Assembly (NCBI GenBank): GCA_021158845.1
Contig: JAGGSY010000086.1
Coordinates: 1-30,004, forward strand
DNA length: 30,004 bases
DNA from: Caldisericia bacterium
GTDB taxonomy: Bacteria > Caldisericota > Caldisericia > B22-G15
Direction: 5' to 3'
Positions 54 through 9,468 of the stretch are shown here, piece after piece. Numbering within the stretch: the stretch's first letter is position 1; each line of letters opens with the position of its first letter. A program made the position numbers and the translations under genes. Under the pieces are notes generated by a model, which was not told the DNA's origin, made no database searches, and worked only from the letters and a program-made list of their open reading frames with translations.

Positions 54-2441
54 TTAAGCCTCTTTTTTCTTTGTTGGAGCCATGAAGAAGTCATCAACCT
101 CCTTCTTTCCGTGTAGAAGAGCAAGAGCGATCTTTTCTGCTGTAATTGGCATTGCTTTTACCCTTACTCCAACAGCATCTTCAACTGCATTGGCTATTGC
201 TGGAGCAACGGGAATCATAACATGCTCTGCCATACCTCTTGCACCAAATGGTCCATCGTGTTGAGGAACTTCTACAAATATTGGTATAAATTCATCCGGT
301 ATATCAAGAGATGTTGGAATCTTGTAGTCTGTGAAGTTTGGATTGAGGATCTTTCCATTTTCATCAATCCTCATGTCTTCATAGAGAGCTGTTGCAATTC
401 CCTGAACAGCACCACCTATAAGCTGCCCTTTTAGAGTTTCAGGGTTGAGAGCCTTTCCAACATCTATTGCCTCTGCAAGTTTAAGAATGTGAACTCTTCC
501 AGTCTCTTTATCAATCTCAAGAACAACTCCTCCAGCTCCCACTGTGTAGTGAACATTTGGATGTCCACCCTGGCTTGTCTCTGGATCCTGAAGCGCAGAT
601 GCAAATTCAACCATGATTGATCCACTTCCAACAATCGCCTGACCTCTGTATGTTCCATCCTCCATCATAATTCCATTAATCACAAAATCTTTGAGTGGGA
701 GTTCAAAGTCTGGGTCTGTTGTACATTTAACCTTCTCATCTTCAAGATAGAGATGGTCCTTTTCATAGTTAAGTGCTCTATGAACAACATCAAATATCTT
801 CTCTCTTGCATCAAGGGCAGCTCTCTTTACAGCATTTCCAAGTAACCATGTAGAGTGAGAAGCAACAGTCTGCCAGTGGTATGGGTTTCTATCTGTATCT
901 GGAAGTTCCACTCTAATCTTCTCTGGTGGTACAGATAGAATTTCAGCTGCAATCTGAGCCATTACAGTGTACATTCCCTGTCCTATTTCCATTCCTGAGA
1001 CAAGTATATTTATACTTCCATCTTCGTTGAACTTAAGAAATGCAGAACAGGTAACATTTGGAGGCATTGCTGGTGCCTTCCATAATGCTGCTATTCCTTT
1101 TCCTATTGCTTTCTTTGGATCTTTACTCTCCTCTTTCTCCTCAAGTTTTATTGCATCTGCAACCTTATCAATACATTCAATAAGACCATTTTCATTCATT
1201 GGAGCACCGTAGGCGAGTGGATCTCCTTCCTTTATTCCGTTTATTTTTCTAAACTCTCTTGGGCTCATTCCAAGTGCTTTTGCAATTCTTGTCATGTGGG
1301 ACTCAATAGAGAACATTATCTCTGAATACCCAAATCCTCTGTACGGTCCTGCTGCTGGAAAGTTTGTGTATATGCAAAGTCCATCCATCTTTATATTAGG
1401 AATATTATAAGGTCCTGTTGCTGATAGAGTGGCAGCATTTACAACATTTGCTCCATACTCTACATATGGACCAGCATCCCAATAGTCTGTACGTTCGAGG
1501 GCAGTTATCCTTCCATCCTTCTTTACACCTACTTTTAATTTAGTTATAACTTGCTGCCTCATATAGGTGTTGTAGAATTCCTGATCTCTCCTCCACCTTA
1601 CCTTCACAGGATGCCCCTTTACAGCTGTTGCTAAAGCTGCAGCAATTATCTCCATGGTTACTCCAGCTTTTCCTCCAAATCCTCCACCAACATATGGGAC
1701 AATTTCTCTTATATTCTGTTCTGTAAAACCAAGCGGTCTGAGCGCTTCAGCGATTAGGTGTCTCTGTGTATGAGGGGATTGAGAGGAAGCCCAGATGGTA
1801 AGCCTTCCATTGTAGTCAACAAAACCTACTGCAATATGTGTTTCCATACAGCAGTGTGCATATCTTGGAATCCTGTATGTATCTTCAAGTATAAAATCTG
1901 CTTCAGCAAATCCTTTCTCAACATCGCCCTTTCTCACCTTTCTCCAGTGTGCGATATTTGTCCCACCATGGGGGTAATACCATGGAACATGGGGGTAGGA
2001 AGCTAACTCTGGATGAATTATTGGCGCATCTTCCTTTATTGCTTCAAGGGGATCAAAAACTGCTGGAAGCGGTTCATACTCAACCTTTACAAGTTTTGCA
2101 GCCTTTTTCGCAGTTTTTGGATCTCTTGCAATAACTGCTGCGACCTGCTCTCCTATAAATCTTACCCTATCCTGAGCAAAGATATATCTATCCTTCATAT
2201 ATAGACCAAACTTGTAGGGAAAGTCTTTTCCAGTCACTACCTTTACAACTCCTGGAACCTTTTCTGCTTCAGATGTATCAATGGAGAGAATCTTTGCATG
2301 GGCATAAGGACTTTCAACTATCTCTGCATAGAGAAGATTTGGACCAAAGTTTATATCATCAACATACTTTGCAGCACCAGTAACTTTATCCTTTTCATCT
2401 ATTCTATTTATTGGCTTTCCAATGAATTTGTATTCACTCAT
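54..2441 (-). CDS. Xanthine dehydrogenase family molybdopterin-binding (large) subunit
   Basis: 795 aa. N-terminal RIDEKDKVTGAAKYVDD hammerhead start, Moco-loop motifs GGGFGGK, YRGFG, EIGQG, and C-terminal GPFGARGMAE with the catalytic Glu position. SD GGAGGAG upstream. Confidence 0.95.
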   Translation of the reverse strand: MSEYKFIGKPINRIDEKDKVTGAAKYVDDINFGPNLLYAEIVESPYAHAKILSIDTSEAEKVPGVVKVVTGKDFPYKFGLYMKDRYIFAQDRVRFIGEQVAAVIARDPKTAKKAAKLVKVEYEPLPAVFDPLEAIKEDAPIIHPELASYPHVPWYYPHGGTNIAHWRKVRKGDVEKGFAEADFILEDTYRIPRYAHCCMETHIAVGFVDYNGRLTIWASSQSPHTQRHLIAEALRPLGFTEQNIREIVPYVGGGFGGKAGVTMEIIAAALATAVKGHPVKVRWRRDQEFYNTYMRQQVITKLKVGVKKDGRITALERTDYWDAGPYVEYGANVVNAATLSATGPYNIPNIKMDGLCIYTNFPAAGPYRGFGYSEIMFSIESHMTRIAKALGMSPREFRKINGIKEGDPLAYGAPMNENGLIECIDKVADAIKLEEKEESKDPKKAIGKGIAALWKAPAMPPNVTCSAFLKFNEDGSINILVSGMEIGQGMYTVMAQIAAEILSVPPEKIRVELPDTDRNPYHWQTVASHSTWLLGNAVKRAALDAREKIFDVVHRALNYEKDHLYLEDEKVKCTTDPDFELPLKDFVINGIMMEDGTYRGQAIVGSGSIMVEFASALQDPETSQGGHPNVHYTVGAGGVVLEIDKETGRVHILKLAEAIDVGKALNPETLKGQLIGGAVQGIATALYEDMRIDENGKILNPNFTDYKIPTSLDIPDEFIPIFVEVPQHDGPFGARGMAEHVMIPVAPAIANAVEDAVGVRVKAMPITAEKIALALLHGKKEVDDFFMAPTKKKEA

Positions 2442-2452
2442 CTTGCTCCTCC

Positions 2453-2917
2453 TTAATATTTCTTTGAGGCGTCAAGAATTGCCTCAATTATAGAAACATA
2501 CCCTGTACAACGGCAAAGGTTCCCACTTATAGCTTCTTTTACCTCTTCTTCTGTTGGATGAGGATTCTTCTTTAGGAGTTCTGTGGCAGTCATTATCATT
2601 CCAGGAGCACAGAAACCACACTGGAATGAGTTATGCTCAATAAAGGATTCCTGAAGTGGGGTAAGCTTATCCTTTGAAAGACCTTCAAGGGTAGTTATCT
2701 CATGACCATCCACCTCTACTGCAAGAATAAGGCAACTTCTTACACTCTTTCCATCGAGAAGAACTGTACATGTTCCACAGTCTCCTCTCCCACACCCATA
2801 CTTTGGAGCAGTTATTCCAAGTTTTGTCCTTAAAACTTCAAGAAGGATATCGTTAGGTTCAACTTCAATGGTTCTCTTTTCTCCATTTAAGATAAAAGTT
2901 ATGGTTTTCTTTTCCAT
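2453..2917 (-). CDS. XDH family (2Fe-2S)-binding small subunit (CoxS/XdhC-like)
   Basis: CGRGDCGTC...SC and QCGFCAPG...NLCRCTGY cluster motifs. Start moved from 2965 to ATG at 2917 (MEKKTITF), which has SD GGAGGA and removes the overlap with the FAD subunit. Confidence 0.95.
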   Translation of the reverse strand: MEKKTITFILNGEKRTIEVEPNDILLEVLRTKLGITAPKYGCGRGDCGTCTVLLDGKSVRSCLILAVEVDGHEITTLEGLSKDKLTPLQESFIEHNSFQCGFCAPGMIMTATELLKKNPHPTEEEVKEAISGNLCRCTGYVSIIEAILDASKKY

Positions 2918-2927
2918 TTTTATCCTC

Positions 2928-3818
2928 CTATATGAGCCTTGTCCCATAATCGGGACCCTTTCCATTCAATCTTTCAACTGCTGCTTTAAGAGCTCTATCA
3001 AGCATAACCTTTGCCATATGCATTCTGTACTCTTTTGTTGCTCTTATATCTGTAATGGGGGAGATCTCCTCTTCTACAAGTTTCTTAGCCTCTTCAATCA
3101 AGGAATCGGAAAGTTCTTTGCCGTTGAGAAGAGATTCAATCTTCTTTGCCCTTGTTGGTTTTGGACCTACTGCACAGAAGGCAACTCTGTATTCATTTCC
3201 AGATAATACAAGAACACCTACTCCAACCTGAGCAAGGTCTTCTCCATTGTATCTTCCAAGTTTTACATAACATCCTGCATGTTTTTTCTGTGGGAGAGGT
3301 ATCTCAATGTATTCTACAAGTTCTCCCTCTTTAAGTGCTGTCTTTCTCGGTCCAAGGAACCACTCTTCAATAGGAATTCTTCTTTCTCCATCTTTACCCT
3401 TTACCACAACAGTTGCCTCATACAGAAGAAGAGCAGGTCCAGAATCAAGGGATGGAACTGCAGAACATATATTTCCAACCATTGTTGCCCTGTTTCTTAT
3501 TCCCATGGATGCAACACTTTTTGCACTTTCCCATAAAAGTGGAAACTTCTCCTTTACAGTTTCATCATCAATTATTTCGTTGAAAGTAGTAAGGGATCCC
3601 ACTATCAATTTGTTATCTTTAAATTCCAACTTCTTTAACTCCTTAAGACCTTTAATGTCAATTACTGCATCTGGAGTTTCAAAACCATCTTTAATTCTTA
3701 CAACAAGATCAGTTCCACCAGAAAGAATCCTTGCTTTAGCACCATACTTATTTAAAAGTTTAATGGCTTCATCAATTGATGAAGGTTTAAAATACTCAAA
3801 CTCATGAGCTATAATCAT
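2928..3818 (-). CDS. XDH family FAD-binding medium subunit (CoxM/XdhB-like)
   Basis: FEYFKPSSIDEAI, LSGGTDL, IRNRATMVGNI, DSGPAL, PITDIRATKEYR motifs; 296 aa. Confidence 0.95.
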   Translation of the reverse strand: MIIAHEFEYFKPSSIDEAIKLLNKYGAKARILSGGTDLVVRIKDGFETPDAVIDIKGLKELKKLEFKDNKLIVGSLTTFNEIIDDETVKEKFPLLWESAKSVASMGIRNRATMVGNICSAVPSLDSGPALLLYEATVVVKGKDGERRIPIEEWFLGPRKTALKEGELVEYIEIPLPQKKHAGCYVKLGRYNGEDLAQVGVGVLVLSGNEYRVAFCAVGPKPTRAKKIESLLNGKELSDSLIEEAKKLVEEEISPITDIRATKEYRMHMAKVMLDRALKAAVERLNGKGPDYGTRLI

Positions 3819-3832
3819 ATCGTACCTCCAGA

Positions 3833-4651
3833 TTATTCAGGTGGTTCAAGGGCAATAACCCTCATCATAGAGGATTCAAACTCAATTGCCCTTAATGGAA
3901 AAGCACCAATCCATACCCTCTTATTTTTTAACTTGTCTATATCACCACCAAGGTTTTCAGCATGAACAAGTCCCTTAGGGAATAGTTTAAGATGCATCAC
4001 CTGATAGTACTCCTCGGGAGGGAACATCTCATCCCAACTCTTTCCATACTTTTCCTTAAGTTTCTTTTCTGCCTCCTGAAATGCTTTGGGATGCCACTGT
4101 CTTATTATTGTGTTCATGGGGTGATCAGCACTACCACAATCAACACCTATCCACTTAAACTTCATCTCGAGCGCCCATTTATGAAATTCAGGGTCAGGTC
4201 CTGGATGCTTTACAAAGTATCTTACCTCATCAGACTCTGGCTGATCCCACGCATACCTGTGATACCCTGTATTTATGATTAGAATATCACCCTTTCTAAT
4301 ATCTGCCTTTTCCATGAGCATCTCTGGGGAATAGAGGTCGTAATCTCCAACCTCATCAGATATATCCACAACAACACCAGGTCCAATCCATTCTTCAATA
4401 GGAACCTCACCTATGGATCTTCCACTTGCATGGAAGTGAATCTCTCCATCCATATGAGTTCCCACATGATGGCTTGTTGTTATTACCTGACCATTGGCTC
4501 CCTGTCCCATGTGCGCACCAGCAATTCTCTTGAAGTATTGAACACTTAAAGGGATATAGCTTGGCCATGGAGGAGTGTGCACACTCAAAGGCTGTGTTAG
4601 ATCATAGACCTTAACTTTACCCATAAACTCCAAAAATTCATCAATGTTCAT
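3833..4651 (-). CDS. Cyclase family metal-dependent hydrolase (kynurenine formamidase/isatin hydrolase fold)
   Basis: YDLTQPL start, HVGTHMDGEIH (variant of HxGTHxDxPxH), GVDCGSADHP, HAENL; SD AAGGAGG. Confidence 0.9.
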   Translation of the reverse strand: MNIDEFLEFMGKVKVYDLTQPLSVHTPPWPSYIPLSVQYFKRIAGAHMGQGANGQVITTSHHVGTHMDGEIHFHASGRSIGEVPIEEWIGPGVVVDISDEVGDYDLYSPEMLMEKADIRKGDILIINTGYHRYAWDQPESDEVRYFVKHPGPDPEFHKWALEMKFKWIGVDCGSADHPMNTIIRQWHPKAFQEAEKKLKEKYGKSWDEMFPPEEYYQVMHLKLFPKGLVHAENLGGDIDKLKNKRVWIGAFPLRAIEFESSMMRVIALEPPE

Positions 4652-4661
4652 CTTAACCTCC

Positions 4662-4835
4662 TTACTTTCCCAGTAATTTCTTTAGAGCTTCCATTACCTC
4701 CTCATCTCCACCTGCAGGTGGCCTCCAATCCACCTGAATAACCTTAACTCCTGCATCTTCAAGGCTTTCTTTAAATGAGAGAAGCCCAATGTTTATAACC
4801 TTGAGTTCTTTTCCAAATAGATCCTTTATAGCCAT
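4662..4835 (-). CDS. 57-aa stand-alone 'FdrA domain' protein (module found at the C-terminus of E. coli FdrA and N-terminus of YahG)
   Basis: Not in the ORF track. Manual translation: MAIKDLFGKELKVINIGLLSFKESLEDAGVKVIQVDWRPPAGGDEEVMEALKKLLGK*. ATG overlaps the fdrA stop (TAATG), SD GGAGGTG upstream, and it fills the gap exactly. INIGL..F and DWRPPAGG match the module from memory. Confidence 0.85.
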   Translation of the reverse strand: MAIKDLFGKELKVINIGLLSFKESLEDAGVKVIQVDWRPPAGGDEEVMEALKKLLGK

Positions 4836-6412
4836 TACTTATCACCTCCCAGCTTCTTTACAATGTATGCAGATAGTTTGCTTGCTGCAGCATTTGATGG
4901 CATAACTATGGCTCCTGCCTCTTTAAGTTCCTTCTCTACCTTATCTTTATTCTGTGGGTCTTTCTTTGTTCCAGTTATGGAGCAAATGATGGATAAATCT
5001 CTTCCCTCCTTCTTTGCCATCTCCTTTGCTTTCTTAATCACTGGGGCAAGTTCCTCTCCCGGTTTCATATTGGAGCCATACCCAAGTACTACATCAAGTA
5101 GAATTACTGCTACCTCTGGATCCTTTGCCTCTTCAAGAATCCTTTTATTTCTTAAGGTATAATCAATCATTGGGTGTGGTCTTCCAACTGTGAATTCATC
5201 CTCTCCTAAATCAACCACTGTGTTCTTAAAACTCTTCCATGAGTCTTTAAGCTTAAATTCTTCCTTTAGAGGTGCATTACCATATGCATAACCAATCATA
5301 TCCTTAAAGAGAAGTTGAGCCTCATCACATAGTGTTCCTCCTGTGTATAATCCTCTAACATACTTCTGCCCCTCTTTCTTCTTTGAAGCTTCCTCCTCAG
5401 CAAGTTTCTTAATCTCCTCTTCTCTTTCCTCAAGGAGTTTTTTAAACTCATCCATGCTCTTTCCTTTTGAGAGAGAAGCTGCAATGAGTCCTGCCTCCTC
5501 AAGGGTGTTGGCTGGAATGGCTCCGGCATTTTTAACCACTTCCGGATCTCCTCCAATAAATATTCCAACAACTGGTTTCTTAATCTCTTCCTTTATAAGA
5601 TTTGCAATCTTCTTTAGTACATCCTCGTGTGGTGGTTTAGATACAAGGGCAATAACCTTTGTGTTTTCATCCTCGTTAAGTGCCTTCATTCCCTCAAGAA
5701 ACATTATTCCACCAACATCCTTTTTAACATCCCTTCCACCTGTTCCTATAGCTTGAGATATTCCTGCTCCCTCATTTGTAATTACACAACTTACCTCCTG
5801 AAGTCCTGTTCCAGATGCTGCCACAATTCCTATGTCTCCACGATTCACTACATTTGCAAAGGCAAGTGGAGCTCCATTTATTATTGCAGTTCCACAATCT
5901 GGTCCCATTACAAGAAGTCCTTTATCCCTTGCATACTTCTTAAGTTCGATCTCCTTTTCAAGGGGAACATTGTCTGAGAAGAGCATAACATGGAGGCCTT
6001 TCTCAAGTGCTTTCATCGCTTCATCTCCAGCATACTTTCCTGCAACAGAGATAAGCACGAGATTTGCATCTGGCATGATCTCCAGTGCACCTTCAAGACT
6101 CTTCGGTAGATAGTCTCCAGCCTCTTCAAATTTTGTTCTGCTCTCCTGAAGGTCTTTTTCTGCCTTTTCAAGCATCTTTTCAGCGAGAGATTCATCCTTT
6201 GCTTTGACAACAATAATGAGATCAGAATCCTTTGCTTGCTTAAACTCATCAAGCAGCATTCCAGAAGATTCAAGAATGGACTTGTTCTCATCTGTCCCCA
6301 TAACAATAGCAGCATCTTCAACTCCTTCAACCTCTGTAAGACCTTTAGCCACGAGCATGAGAGTCACAGAATCAAAGTACTGACCTTTCTTAACAACACC
6401 TTTTACAACCAT
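4835..6412 (-). CDS. fdrA: FdrA/AllF acyl-CoA-synthetase-like protein (oxamate carbamoyltransferase subunit family)
   Basis: GQYFDSVTLM start, LFSDNV, MGPDCGT, IVAASGTG, AIGTGGRD, GLYTGGTLC, VGRPHPMID; 525 aa. Confidence 0.93.
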   Translation of the reverse strand: MVVKGVVKKGQYFDSVTLMLVAKGLTEVEGVEDAAIVMGTDENKSILESSGMLLDEFKQAKDSDLIIVVKAKDESLAEKMLEKAEKDLQESRTKFEEAGDYLPKSLEGALEIMPDANLVLISVAGKYAGDEAMKALEKGLHVMLFSDNVPLEKEIELKKYARDKGLLVMGPDCGTAIINGAPLAFANVVNRGDIGIVAASGTGLQEVSCVITNEGAGISQAIGTGGRDVKKDVGGIMFLEGMKALNEDENTKVIALVSKPPHEDVLKKIANLIKEEIKKPVVGIFIGGDPEVVKNAGAIPANTLEEAGLIAASLSKGKSMDEFKKLLEEREEEIKKLAEEEASKKKEGQKYVRGLYTGGTLCDEAQLLFKDMIGYAYGNAPLKEEFKLKDSWKSFKNTVVDLGEDEFTVGRPHPMIDYTLRNKRILEEAKDPEVAVILLDVVLGYGSNMKPGEELAPVIKKAKEMAKKEGRDLSIICSITGTKKDPQNKDKVEKELKEAGAIVMPSNAAASKLSAYIVKKLGGDK

Positions 6413-7287
6413 ACTTCTCCTCCTTTCATCAAAGTCATAAATAATCCTGTCCCAATATCACTCCCTGAAGTATCTCCTACCCCCATTAGCTTAAAGAAGT
6501 ACTCTTCCACATCTCTCGGACTCTTATAAATAATTGAGATAATCAGGTTTTTTGCCCTCTCGAAAAACTCTCCTCTACTTGAAAAGTATAAAAATGATGA
6601 TGAGATTAGGTTATGAGTTTTAGATAATTTATATATTTTAGCCCTAACAGTGGTTAAATCATAATTAAACAAATTTTCAAGGATATAGAGCCCTGAAAGA
6701 ACTCCAGATATGAAATCATCTCCACTTGGAGTGAGACCATAGCCTACTCCCTTTAGCAGATTAATCCCTGATTCTACTCTTCCACTGAACAACTCATCAG
6801 CGCCTTTCTTTATTCTTCTCACAAAAGTTCTTTCAAATTCACTTTTGAAATAACCTTCCCTTCTTTTGTCCAGAAGGAAGGATAAACTCCGTTCTGGTGA
6901 ATGGAAAATAAGTAGATCTCTTAGAGTGTTAAGGTTCTTTTTGTACCTATCCATGGAAAACTCTAAAGAGAAGTCAATTTTTGAAGAGTAGACTAAATTT
7001 TTGTTTATTTCAAAACGACTTTCATTCACAATTATAAAACCGTCTCCAACAGATAAAGTTTTTACACAATTTATCGGAAAACCTCTTATCACTATATTCA
7101 CAGGACCTCCTCCCACTTCCTCTGTAACCACCGATGCAAGATAACCATCTTTTACAAAATTCACCACCCTTTTAAATCTTGAGTGAAGTTTGTAATTCCC
7201 TATATGGAGCCTATCTCCTATACTTAATAATTCTAACTTATGGATATTGGTTTCTAAATTTTTTTTTAATAGAGTTTTTTCTTTCAC
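6403..7287 (-). CDS. DUF2877 family protein (YlbF/AllH/YahE-like)
   Basis: GVGYGLTPSGDDFISG and GDTSGSD motifs, directly upstream of fdrA as in all/yah clusters. GTG start is somewhat uncertain. Confidence 0.85.
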   Translation of the reverse strand: MKEKTLLKKNLETNIHKLELLSIGDRLHIGNYKLHSRFKRVVNFVKDGYLASVVTEEVGGGPVNIVIRGFPINCVKTLSVGDGFIIVNESRFEINKNLVYSSKIDFSLEFSMDRYKKNLNTLRDLLIFHSPERSLSFLLDKRREGYFKSEFERTFVRRIKKGADELFSGRVESGINLLKGVGYGLTPSGDDFISGVLSGLYILENLFNYDLTTVRAKIYKLSKTHNLISSSFLYFSSRGEFFERAKNLIISIIYKSPRDVEEYFFKLMGVGDTSGSDIGTGLFMTLMKGGEVWL

Positions 7288-7292
7288 TTAGA

Positions 7293-7742
7293 CTACCTTA
7301 GATGCATAATTCCAAGTGCAGCCTTTTCATGATTTGTAATGGGATAAAAGGCTGAATCTCCAAATATTCCAACACAAAGCCATCTTCCATCAGATACTAT
7401 CCCAACTTTAAGGGAGAGGGAGGAATCTAAAGACTCATTTAATATAAGGGAATTTAACGCTTCAAGAGAGGCATGAACGAGGGCATGAACCTCCGGAACT
7501 GTTTTGTTAATGACATTACAATTCAATGCAGCGCCAAGAACTGCTGGAATCAACTTTTTTCTAATATCAGAGGCAAATCCTGCTACCCGCGTAACACCTA
7601 TTTTGTACTTCTTAAGTTCAGAAAGTTTCTTTTTTAACTCTACTTCCTCCTCATCTGAAGACATTGCAAGTAGAAGTGCCGCCTTACCTACCCTATCCAC
7701 ATTCATTCTAAATTCTGTTGCAACTACACTCTTTTTTTCCAT
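7293..7742 (-). CDS. hutP: HutP family RNA-binding regulatory protein
   Basis: 149 aa (B. subtilis HutP is about 148). HxxxH (H86, H90) plus H138. C-terminal KVGIVSDGRWLCVGIFGD...NHEKAALGIMHL strand pattern typical of HutP. Confidence 0.82.
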   Translation of the reverse strand: MEKKSVVATEFRMNVDRVGKAALLLAMSSDEEEVELKKKLSELKKYKIGVTRVAGFASDIRKKLIPAVLGAALNCNVINKTVPEVHALVHASLEALNSLILNESLDSSLSLKVGIVSDGRWLCVGIFGDSAFYPITNHEKAALGIMHLR

Positions 7743-7750
7743 ATCCTCTC

Positions 7751-7767
7751 CTATTCTCTAAAATCTA
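7751..7767 (-). promoter_or_regulatory. Putative HutP-binding RNA element UAG-N4-UAG-N4-UAG overlapping the hutP Shine-Dalgarno
   Basis: Minus strand reads UAG AUUU UAG AGAA UAG GAGAGG AU AUG. CTA triplets on the + strand at 7751, 7758 and 7765, exactly 7 nt apart. Confidence 0.75.
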
Positions 7768-7774
7768 CATTTAA

Positions 7775-7803
7775 ATTATTAACTATCTACTTAAAGTTGT
7801 CAA
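7775..7803 (-). promoter_or_regulatory. Sigma70/SigA promoter of the hutP operon
   Basis: TTGACA (7803-7798), 17-nt spacer, AATAAT (7780-7775). Predicted TSS about 7768-7770. Confidence 0.75.
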
Positions 7804-7825
7804 GTAAAATTGGTGTCCGATTCGC

Positions 7826-7854
7826 TTTATATAAAAGAGGTTTTTTGGTATATT
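7826..7854 (+). promoter_or_regulatory. Extended -10 promoter for the DUF4388-mglB-mglA operon (probably leaderless)
   Basis: TG-G-TATATT at 7846-7854, weak -35 TTTATA at 7826-7831 (17-nt spacer). ATG at 7861 is 6 nt past the -10, with no SD. Confidence 0.55.
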
Positions 7855-7860
7855 TTTAGT

Positions 7861-8391
7861 ATGAAATTAAAGGGTGAATTGGGAATAATAGAGGTATCCT
7901 CTTTAATACAAACAATAAATCAATTAAGAAAGACTGGAAAACTTGAGATTCTTCTCCCCAATGGAGATAAAGGTGAAATTTTTTTTGACAATGGAGAGAT
8001 AATTCATGCACATTCGCCTGATAATTTTGGTCTTGAAGCCCTTGCAGAAATTTTACTATTCAAGGAAGGAGAGTTTAATTTTAAAGAGAATATAGTTCTT
8101 CCAGCACCTTCCATTAGAATGGATACAGATAGAGCGATAATTGAAGCTATGAGCATGGTTGATGAAACCCAAAGCATTAAGGATATTCTTTCGAAGGTAA
8201 TAGAAATTAAATTTCAAAGTGATGATTCTAAAGTATCTCTTAACAAAGAAGAATTAGTTATATTGATGAAAAGCGATGATAAGAAGACCTTAGGTGAAAT
8301 ATTGTCTGAAACTGGAATGGATAAAGTTAAATTTTTAAAGATAATTGACCAACTATTAAAAAAGGGTATAATAACTTTAAGAAAGGAGTAG
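7861..8391 (+). CDS. DUF4388 (PatA-N-like) domain protein with a C-terminal winged-helix-like region
   Basis: LKGELGIIEVSSLIQ...RKTGKLEI...GEIFFDNGEIIHA...EGEFNF pattern of DUF4388. Start moved from GTG 7810 region to ATG 7861. Confidence 0.8.
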   Translation: MKLKGELGIIEVSSLIQTINQLRKTGKLEILLPNGDKGEIFFDNGEIIHAHSPDNFGLEALAEILLFKEGEFNFKENIVLPAPSIRMDTDRAIIEAMSMVDETQSIKDILSKVIEIKFQSDDSKVSLNKEELVILMKSDDKKTLGEILSETGMDKVKFLKIIDQLLKKGIITLRKE

Positions 8392-8394
8392 AAA

Positions 8395-8877
8395 ATGGCT
8401 GAAGGAATGTCCTCTGTTGTTATATCTGATGAGGATCTAAAAAGAATTGATGATTATTTATCTCAAGCCCTTGCCGATTCCCAGGCAAAAAACATTCTTC
8501 TTTCTGATAGATCGGGTCAGCTTATAACAAAACATGGAGGTGTTTCAAGACAGGATGCTCTAAACATATCTGCTCTTGCTGCTGGTCTCTTCTCTGCAAC
8601 AAATGAACTCGCGAAGCTCCTTGGAGAGAAGGAATTTACCGTCACGTTCCATCAAGGCGAAGAAACCAACATCCATATTTCTCTTCTTGTACCACAGGTC
8701 CTTCTTGTAATTGTATTTGACAATAGAGCGCCAGTGGGAGCAATTAGATTTTGGGCAAAGAAGATAGGAGCAGAGATTATTCCCTATCTCAAAAATATTT
8801 CTGAGAAGCCACCTGAATCTATCAAGAAGGAAGAAATGGAGTCAGAAGTGGAGAAGAAACTGGACTCTCTCTTCTAA
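8395..8877 (+). CDS. mglB: Roadblock/LC7 domain protein, MglB-like GAP
   Basis: LLSDRSGQLI, SALAAGLFSATNELAKLLGEKEF...HQGEETNIH, VIVFDNRAPVGAIR, C-terminal acidic helix ending LDSLF; adjacent to mglA. Confidence 0.9.
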   Translation: MAEGMSSVVISDEDLKRIDDYLSQALADSQAKNILLSDRSGQLITKHGGVSRQDALNISALAAGLFSATNELAKLLGEKEFTVTFHQGEETNIHISLLVPQVLLVIVFDNRAPVGAIRFWAKKIGAEIIPYLKNISEKPPESIKKEEMESEVEKKLDSLF

Positions 8878-8883
8878 TAGAAT

Positions 8884-9468
8884 ATGGCGCTGATAAATTA
8901 TTCTTTAAAAGAGATTACATTTAAAATAGTCTATTATGGCCCTGCTATGAGCGGAAAAACTACCAATTTGAGGTACATTTACGATCATCTTCCCGAGAAG
9001 CTTAAAGGAAAATTCACCTCTATTGCTACAAAGGATGAGAGAACACTCTTCTTTGATTTTCTTCCCCTTGATTTAGGAAAGATAAAGGGTTTTACCATAA
9101 AACTTTCTTTGTATACTGTTCCAGGGCAGGCAATATATACCCTCACAAGAAAAACAATCCTTAAAGCAACTGATGGAATAATATTTGTAGCTGATTCTCA
9201 GAGACATGTGAGAGAAAAAAATATAGAGAGTTTTAAAGATATGGCAGAGAATCTGAAGGAATTTGGTCTTTCCGTTGAGAAGATTCCAATAGTTCTTCAA
9301 TACAACAAGAGAGATTTAAAGGATACTTTAAGTGTGGAAGAGTTAAATGATGATTTAAATGAAGGTGGAACACTCTATCCATACTTTGAATCTATAGCCA
9401 TTGAGGGGAAGGGAGTGATGGAGTGTCTGAAGGCTATCTCAAAATTGGTGATAAGGAAAGTCTCCTGA
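8884..9468 (+). CDS. mglA: MglA small Ras-like GTPase
   Basis: INYSLKEITFKIVYYGPAMSGKTTNL, ERTLFFDFLP, LYTVPGQ, DGIIFVADS, QYNKRD. Confidence 0.95.
   Translation: MALINYSLKEITFKIVYYGPAMSGKTTNLRYIYDHLPEKLKGKFTSIATKDERTLFFDFLPLDLGKIKGFTIKLSLYTVPGQAIYTLTRKTILKATDGIIFVADSQRHVREKNIESFKDMAENLKEFGLSVEKIPIVLQYNKRDLKDTLSVEELNDDLNEGGTLYPYFESIAIEGKGVMECLKAISKLVIRKVS

Follow-up and report, generated by a model that had tools for sequence, protein, structure and literature searches.

In Escherichia coli, oxamate carbamoyltransferase activity needs AllF, AllG and AllH together (PMC11326118). Their genes are linked there to allB, allC, allD and allE, with AllD supplying oxalurate. Paralogous subunits are encoded by the E. 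coli operon yahE-yahF-yahG-yahI, which also has a carbamate kinase and the amidohydrolase YahJ. In the actinobacterial oxidative pyrimidine pathway, which comprises uracil/thymine dehydrogenase, barbiturase (EC 3.5.2.1) and ureidomalonase, barbiturate is a known intermediate that is opened to ureidomalonate (PMC3758960). The reductive urate (2,8-dioxopurine) pathway, XdhD/YgfK/SsnA/HyuA/YgeW/YqeA, breaks down nucleobases anaerobically with a molybdenum (Mo) enzyme and gains adenosine triphosphate (ATP) from carbamoyl phosphate (10.1101/2025.05.19.654654). Here, an eight-gene operon on the minus strand of a 30,004-nucleotide stretch of contig JAGGSY010000086.1 from a Caldisericia bacterium (the window) was compared with these systems. 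The host genome (1.21 Mb, 37% GC) is 96% complete, and the gene absences reported below apply at that completeness. By the features examined, the system resembles AllFGH joined to the oxidative pyrimidine pathway and appears to be a member of neither. Our confidence is evenly balanced that the operon, together with genes at other sites in the genome, encodes the larger part of a catabolic route for pyrimidine bases that needs no oxygen.

Assignment of open reading frame (ORF) families with Pfam and NCBIfam profiles bore out the families named in the original prediction. The AllH/YahE (DUF2877) subunit (positions 6403–7287, 294 amino acids (aa); PF11392, 74 bits) is 25–28% identical to E. coli YahE/AllH over 112 aa. 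FdrA (4835–6412, 525 aa), the AllF/YahF subunit resembling succinyl-CoA synthetase alpha, scores 536 bits against PRK06091, above the cut-off of 433. It shares 42% identity with YahF (369 bits) and 40% with AllF (362 bits), and its invariant His413 is a candidate phosphohistidine. A stand-alone ORF of 57 aa (4662–4835) matches residues 3–53 of YahG, at the AllG N-terminus, and residues 509–554 at the C-terminus of E. coli AllF. These matches identify it as a detached N-terminal module of a YahG-type AllG. Of 54 loci, 48 have the module joined to AllG in one protein and the other six have it as a separate gene. At two loci (L093 and L097, in genomes G039 and G054), FdrA, module and AllG apparently form one fused protein of about 1040–1050 aa.

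DUF1116/AllG, which had been invoked for this locus, is not encoded in the window operon. Nevertheless, the genome encodes all three AllFGH families, as E. coli does, with AllH and AllF encoded in the window and AllG (415 aa) on contig C82, where its gene is intact, occurs once in the genome and has a promoter-like site of its own. Identity of the cluster proteins to E. coli AllF and AllG is 40–45%. Unlike in E. coli, the module is a separate gene, the order is allH-fdrA, and a cyclase and a Mo hydroxylase accompany these genes. The host moreover lacks several genes of the all pathway: AllA, AllC, AllD and AllE had no match in the genome and PF02615 was not found either, in line with the original prediction, so no usual source of oxalurate is present. 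The likeness to the yah operon extends to gene order and to the domain split, with the module on the AllG N-terminus, and identity is 42% for YahF and 48% for YahG. An AllG from one cluster scored 376 bits against AllG and 409 against YahG, a comparison of scores rather than of positions in a tree. Gene order and domain split match yahEFG better than allFGH, while Yah and All scores are about equal. The yah operon differs in having neither a cyclase nor a Mo hydroxylase.

A complex of FdrA, the module and the C82 AllG was predicted with a score of 0.52, against 0.02 for the best control. In the calibration, 7 of 80 solved complexes passed at 0.60 or below, and so did both of the mismatched sets, among 110, that passed at all. 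The partner predicted local distance difference test score (pLDDT) was at least 92, and the runs agreed in 100% of contacts. This weakly supports an assembly of the three proteins. A second fdrA-allG pair in genome G006 (L132:6903–16933, contig C5) lies beside an isochorismatase-family hydrolase, an NCS1 carrier and an ABC transporter, and the FdrA/AllG module appears to serve other ureides too.

On C82, allG is followed by a 549-aa double cyclase, 54–57% identical to the window cyclase, and then by a convergent GNAT-fold gene. Two sister genomes (G001 and G002) also have allG at a separate locus, so the split of the operon is regarded as real. Misassembly as the reason for the absent allG was rejected, given that these genomes share the split and that the cyclase copies are only 67–71% identical in DNA. 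In a sister genus (loci L007, L017 and L092), the genes run from an NCS2 permease through two small ORFs, hutP, allH, fdrA, the module, the cyclase, allG, the double cyclase and the Mo-hydroxylase subunits M, S and L to the GNAT-fold gene. In the genus of the window the same set is divided among the window contig (C1), C82, and C37 with the permease; C18 carries a second GNAT-fold gene. The window operon is one piece of a larger cluster and is not self-contained.

The double cyclase (545–549 aa; L128:944–2593 on C82, L090 and L092) occurs in family f1 and in some f2 genomes. Among the aligned copies, the metal motif is gone from the first domain in L090 and L092 (His62 to Thr, Asp68 to Val) and present in the second domain of L090, and the protein resembles a fused pseudo-heterodimer. 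The allG leader, about 190 nucleotides (nt) counted from the promoter-like site (L128:3860–4075 on C82, L090:4820–5036 and L091:1882–2098), has a 9-base-pair (bp) inverted repeat and is 90% conserved, within the genus only. It had no Rfam match at the gathering score. One row of alignment A2, which had wrong coordinates, was disregarded.

A gene-neighborhood survey of the cyclase clade, which had been suggested as a check, was carried out. Of 46 well-flanked loci, which come from many phyla, 37 have all of FdrA, AllG, M and L next to the cyclase. Where the flank was sufficient, fdrA was present at 45 of 53 loci, allG at 44, allH at 41, and M/S/L at 56–58 of 64. The conserved set is allH-fdrA-allG-cyclase-xdhM/S/L; carbamate kinase and allB, allC and allD genes are not part of it. 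The closest intact clusters are in records labeled Caldisericota, and cyclase relatives with 78–99% identity were found in records of Cloacimonadota, Verrucomicrobiota, Elusimicrobiota, Bacteroidota, Spirochaetota, Acidobacteriota and Undinarchaeota. The cluster is common to many oxygen-avoiding microbes. In 41 genomes from the class, the presence of AllG matches that of the cyclase clade without exception (16 with both, 25 with neither), although these kin are not independent. A sister cyclase clade of about 53% identity has the same partners in other gene orders. Accessory genes among 80 loci comprise an orphan GNAT-fold gene (25), a thiolase-fold/DUF35 pair (21–22), an amidase (10), a class III coenzyme A (CoA)-transferase (9) and an NCS2 permease (9); the thiolase-fold consensus is without the usual catalytic Cys. 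At archaeal loci L029, L037 and L051, from Undinarchaeota and another archaeon, the arrangement is cyclase-M-S-L with no fdrA or allG nearby, and L is 68% identical to the window L. PF09663 was not found in the genomes reached through the loci, in a search that had no positive control. No description of the cluster was found in the searchable literature, which excludes most subscription papers.

The cyclase (3833–4651, 272 aa; PF04199) has the motif HxGTHxDxxxH, and its conserved residues are H62, H66, D68 and H72 with D171 and H230/E232 downstream. Its best fold match is isatin hydrolase, with a template modeling (TM) score of 0.64–0.65. Motif, downstream Asp/His/Glu and fold place it among the PF04199 metallo-amidohydrolases, and it is proposed to carry out the ring-opening step. 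The fold and the metal-binding motif are those of isatin hydrolase (4J0N, 5NNA) and KynB (4COB). Nevertheless, identity to these enzymes is about 20%, the loops are longer, the gene context is another one, and the score is well under the arylformamidase cut-off. Residue equivalences to KynB, and those of malonamidase E2 used below, rest on alignments.

Three ORFs encode a Mo hydroxylase with flavin adenine dinucleotide (FAD) subunit M (2928–3818, 296 aa), 2x[2Fe-2S] subunit S (2453–2914, 153 aa) and molybdopterin subunit L (54–2441, 795 aa). All were assigned from Pfam and NCBIfam profiles, with M under all equivalog cut-offs, and the catalytic Glu and the molybdenum-cofactor-binding motifs of the xanthine oxidase family are present. 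L keeps Glu739 as the catalytic residue, Arg368 and Gln221, by equivalence to xanthine oxidase. XdhA and PucD carry an acid after GGFGGK, whereas L has Ala at this place of the xanthine-binding acid and scores 540 bits against a cut-off of 780 for XdhA and 430 against 784 for PucD. It also falls under the CoxL and HcrA cut-offs, and protein searches with L returned generic names only. L forms a clade of its own, uncharacterized and under every curated cut-off. Orthology of L to the barbiturase-linked dehydrogenase was rejected by comparison with the L of the Embleya barbiturase cluster, a context-chosen stand-in for the Rhodococcus dehydrogenase sequence, to which identity is 28% on a separate branch.

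From the established gene identities, intact motifs, conserved linkage and sites of the missing genes, we infer the substrate and every reaction of the route. On the reading that fits best, and on which our judgment is evenly divided, an NCS2 permease (C37) would import uracil or thymine. M/S/L would add a water-derived oxygen at C6 to give barbiturate, or 5-methylbarbiturate from thymine. The cyclase would then hydrolyze the cyclic imide to ureidomalonate, taking the role of barbiturase while being unrelated to it. AllH, FdrA, the 57-aa module and the C82 AllG would split ureidomalonate by phosphorolysis, releasing carbamoyl phosphate together with either malonamate or a C3 unit bound to CoA. 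Ureidomalonate is a one-carbon-longer analog of oxalurate. Finally, a carbamate-kinase-like enzyme encoded on a third contig, C47, would make ATP. The original idea that a ring is oxidized, opened and relieved of carbamoyl phosphate agrees with the intact catalytic motifs and with the set of genes that is conserved; the operon is not the full route, with AllG on C82 and the carbamate-kinase-like gene on C47. Carboxyltransferase, biotin carrier and OadB-type genes are also present in the genome and could decarboxylate (methyl)malonyl-CoA.

The operon context points to pyrimidines more than to purines or allantoin, as judged from the genes that travel with it. All 16 cluster-associated bacterial NCS2 permeases (15 in loci and the C37 ortholog) have Glu at the position of UraA E290, where XanP, XanQ and UacT have Gln; 8 of the 16 group with UraA/RutG. 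This position is a known specificity determinant (PMC5972032). The best PDB match of the sister-cluster amidase is malonamidase E2 (180 bits, the next 156), with the same GSxxRPA spacing. In Embleya, the cluster around a true barbiturase (595 bits to 5HWE) has a class III CoA-transferase, a carboxyltransferase, a carbamate kinase, a Mo hydroxylase and a RutG-like permease, paralleling the accessory genes found here. Haloarchaeal cyclase homologs (45–49% identity) adjoin a Mo hydroxylase whose L is nearest to the Embleya enzyme (32–33%, a weak placement on long branches). Permeases with the Glu motif lie at these loci too, and one locus has genes annotated as cytosine deaminase and cytosine permease. 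The absence of allA, allC, allD and allE, and the purine-type enzymes encoded at other loci of the genome, also speak for pyrimidines. The first two steps proposed would be like those of the actinobacterial pathway. In contrast to that pathway, the ring opener has the cyclase fold, L is 28% identical and the last step is proposed to be phosphorolysis instead of hydrolysis to urea; a tblastn search with the Embleya barbiturase found no AtzD-family match in the genome. In Embleya (L110:9988–15095), the carbamate kinase gene lies immediately upstream of the true barbiturase gene, which suggests that carbamoyl phosphate is also recovered in an actinobacterial pyrimidine route.

Several observations weigh against pyrimidines as the substrate. 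The best match of the CoA-transferase in sister clusters is YfdE (337 bits), an oxalate CoA-transferase, which fits oxalurate instead. The C37 type of permease, linked to the window family, does not group with UraA/RutG. Permeases with Glu in the motif also include carriers of broad purine/pyrimidine range (PMC5972032). The genome has PreT/PreA, which may already provide a reductive uracil route, although enzymes of this type also serve urate breakdown (10.1101/2025.05.19.654654). Carbamate kinase is not specific, because all 41 genomes from the class have it. Moreover, the window genome has none of the amidase, CoA-transferase and thiolase-fold pair of the sister clusters, the cyclase stands without fdrA at 8 of 53 loci, and the window L lies on another branch than the L of the barbiturase-linked Embleya enzyme.

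Another N-heterocycle (a modified nucleobase, a pteridine or a pyridine ring) could be oxidized, opened and phosphorolyzed by the same logic, or the Mo enzyme could run reductively. We consider this rather unlikely. The isolated position of L and the FdrA/AllG modules beside other amidohydrolases (L132) would agree with it, and the uracil route leaves unexplained the Cys-less thiolase-fold/DUF35 pair and the orphan GNAT-fold protein, seen at 21–25 of 80 loci. Against this, nucleobase permeases and malonamidase-like amidases recur among the loci, whereas transporters and enzymes for other classes of ring do not.

The main rival, a hydantoin/parabanate route, is also improbable in our estimate. 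In this scheme the Mo enzyme would oxidize a five-membered ureide ring, the cyclase would convert parabanate to oxalurate, and AllF/G/H would be a true oxamate carbamoyltransferase, which comes closest to the short-cut route first suggested for the operon. Its strength is that oxalurate/oxamate is the sole demonstrated AllFGH substrate pair (PMC11326118) and that isatin hydrolase, the best cyclase fold match, acts on an alpha-dicarbonyl lactam. The YfdE likeness agrees with it, as does a 1965 title, cited in PMC3364942, by which parabanic acid induces oxamate transcarbamylase. However, the linked carriers are NCS2 proteins with the Glu motif and not NCS1/AllW-type allantoin carriers, the sister-cluster amidase is malonamidase-like, the likeness to AllF and AllG is slightly below that to YahF and YahG, and allantoinase/hydantoinase-like matches occur in just 1 of 80 loci. 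With a yahEFG-like architecture and a context nearer to pyrimidines, the short-cut allantoin route is not the best view of the operon.

A decaying remnant, with allG lost and the Fdr module dead, is very improbable. The absence of allG from the operon would suggest it, given the need for all three genes in E. coli, and the corresponding sister-genome locus (L005) is the sole one of 45 fdrA loci without allG. Nevertheless, allG persists on C82 and likewise in two sister genomes, all ORFs are intact and conserved, and the operon aligns to L005 with 89% DNA identity and no breaks. That the cyclase is an ordinary kynurenine formamidase beside an unrelated xanthine dehydrogenase is hardly credible, as the original prediction had expected: KynB gives the best PDB sequence matches (38–46 bits) and some databases label relatives KynB, but the arylformamidase model TIGR03035 scores 56 bits against a cut-off of 223, no kynureninase (TIGR01814) was found in the genome, a separate shorter cyclase is encoded on C84, and the linkage holds across phyla.

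Conservation of the cluster is high over many phyla, most of them uncultured. If the pyrimidine reading is true, it would be an oxygen-independent, energy-conserving turnover route in sediments and digesters; the AllFGH family would gain a second substrate, the cyclase fold a new activity, and E. coli yahEFG a hint to its role. The window adds a split architecture, which shows that AllG and the 57-aa module need not be encoded together. More tentatively, and with doubt somewhat the stronger, a widespread anaerobic, ATP-yielding pyrimidine pathway may exist whose textbook enzymes are replaced by a Mo hydroxylase of a new clade, a barbiturate hydrolase that has the cyclase fold and is unrelated to barbiturase, and a ureidomalonate phosphorylase of AllFGH type; in this genus that last enzyme would be built from two loci bridged by the module.

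The operon layout agreed with the original description. The ORF map contains eight co-oriented minus-strand ORFs whose neighbors overlap or lie at most 14 bp apart; from hutP to L, the junctions are a 5-bp gap, overlaps of 10 and 1 bp, and gaps of 10, 14, 13 and 11 bp. The eight-gene arrangement, predicted from this layout, appears real. Strong Shine-Dalgarno (SD) sites precede seven of the eight starts and a weak one precedes allH; for S, the start picked by its SD, 2914, is most likely correct rather than 2965. Candidates for the single promoter and single terminator claimed earlier are present. The best sigma-70 match (11 of 12 positions, 17-nt spacer between −35 and −10) lies at 7775–7803 on the minus strand, immediately 5' of hutP, and TTGACA occurs at the same place in L005, L007 and L017. 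Nevertheless, promoter-like sites across the region are not above chance (17 found, 21 expected), so the call of this putative promoter is carried by position and conservation. A terminator-like 12-bp hairpin at 3–29, followed by T6 on the minus strand, lies 3' of L at the contig end (1–29) and is identical in L005.

The first gene, hutP (7293–7742, 149 aa; PF09021, 112 bits), probably encodes an RNA-binding regulator. Aligned to PDB 1VEA, the protein retains the HxxxHxxxE and C-terminal His positions. Unlike the B. subtilis HutP equivalog, it misses the NCBIfam HutP cut-off (42 against 155 bits), and in place of the terminator that the B. subtilis antiterminator type has between hutP and the next gene there is a 5-bp gap to allH. 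HutP occurs in 8 of 84 genomes, every one of family f1, the only family of the class to have it, and at 3 of 53 cluster loci. It was correctly named as a member of the operon, but it is a family-specific addition to the cluster and not a core part. The short leader (7743–7770, minus strand) has three UAG triplets 4 nt apart, exact in the window, with the last overlapping the hutP SD. One UAG is CAG in L005, and the triplets are not evident in L007 and L017. It is a possible HutP-type binding site, and triplets over the SD could permit HutP to control its own operon at translation. No known RNA element was matched in the window at the Rfam gathering score.

Enzyme families differ between the operon and the reductive urate pathway, for which candidates lie at other loci of the genome. 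Three further Mo hydroxylases are encoded, two of them purine-type: XdhD-like on C3 (40% identity) and PucD-like on C43; C65 encodes an SsnA-like protein (35%). On C43 (L130, 452–6601), PreT/PreA is joined to a PucD-like xanthine dehydrogenase. L129 (C47:3990–8714) comprises two carbamoyltransferases, a pyridoxal phosphate enzyme and a carbamate kinase with an insertion. These two loci probably represent a variant-type anaerobic purine route. The C47 carbamoyltransferases were rejected as YgeW, being under its cut-off with an AOTCase-like best model, and for this reason a complete 2,8-dioxopurine pathway is not claimed. A cyclic amidohydrolase on C108 is equally close to AllB and HyuA, with 31% identity to each. 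The L subunit nearest to that of the window outside its clade (43% identity) is encoded on C16 (L131, 3646–7674), where L and S adjoin a cytosine-deaminase-like amidohydrolase with no M adjacent. In the window itself, divergent genes for DUF4388, roadblock/LC7 (MglB-like) and small GTPase (MglA-like) proteins lie at 7810–9468 and have a 67-bp intergenic region in common with the operon.

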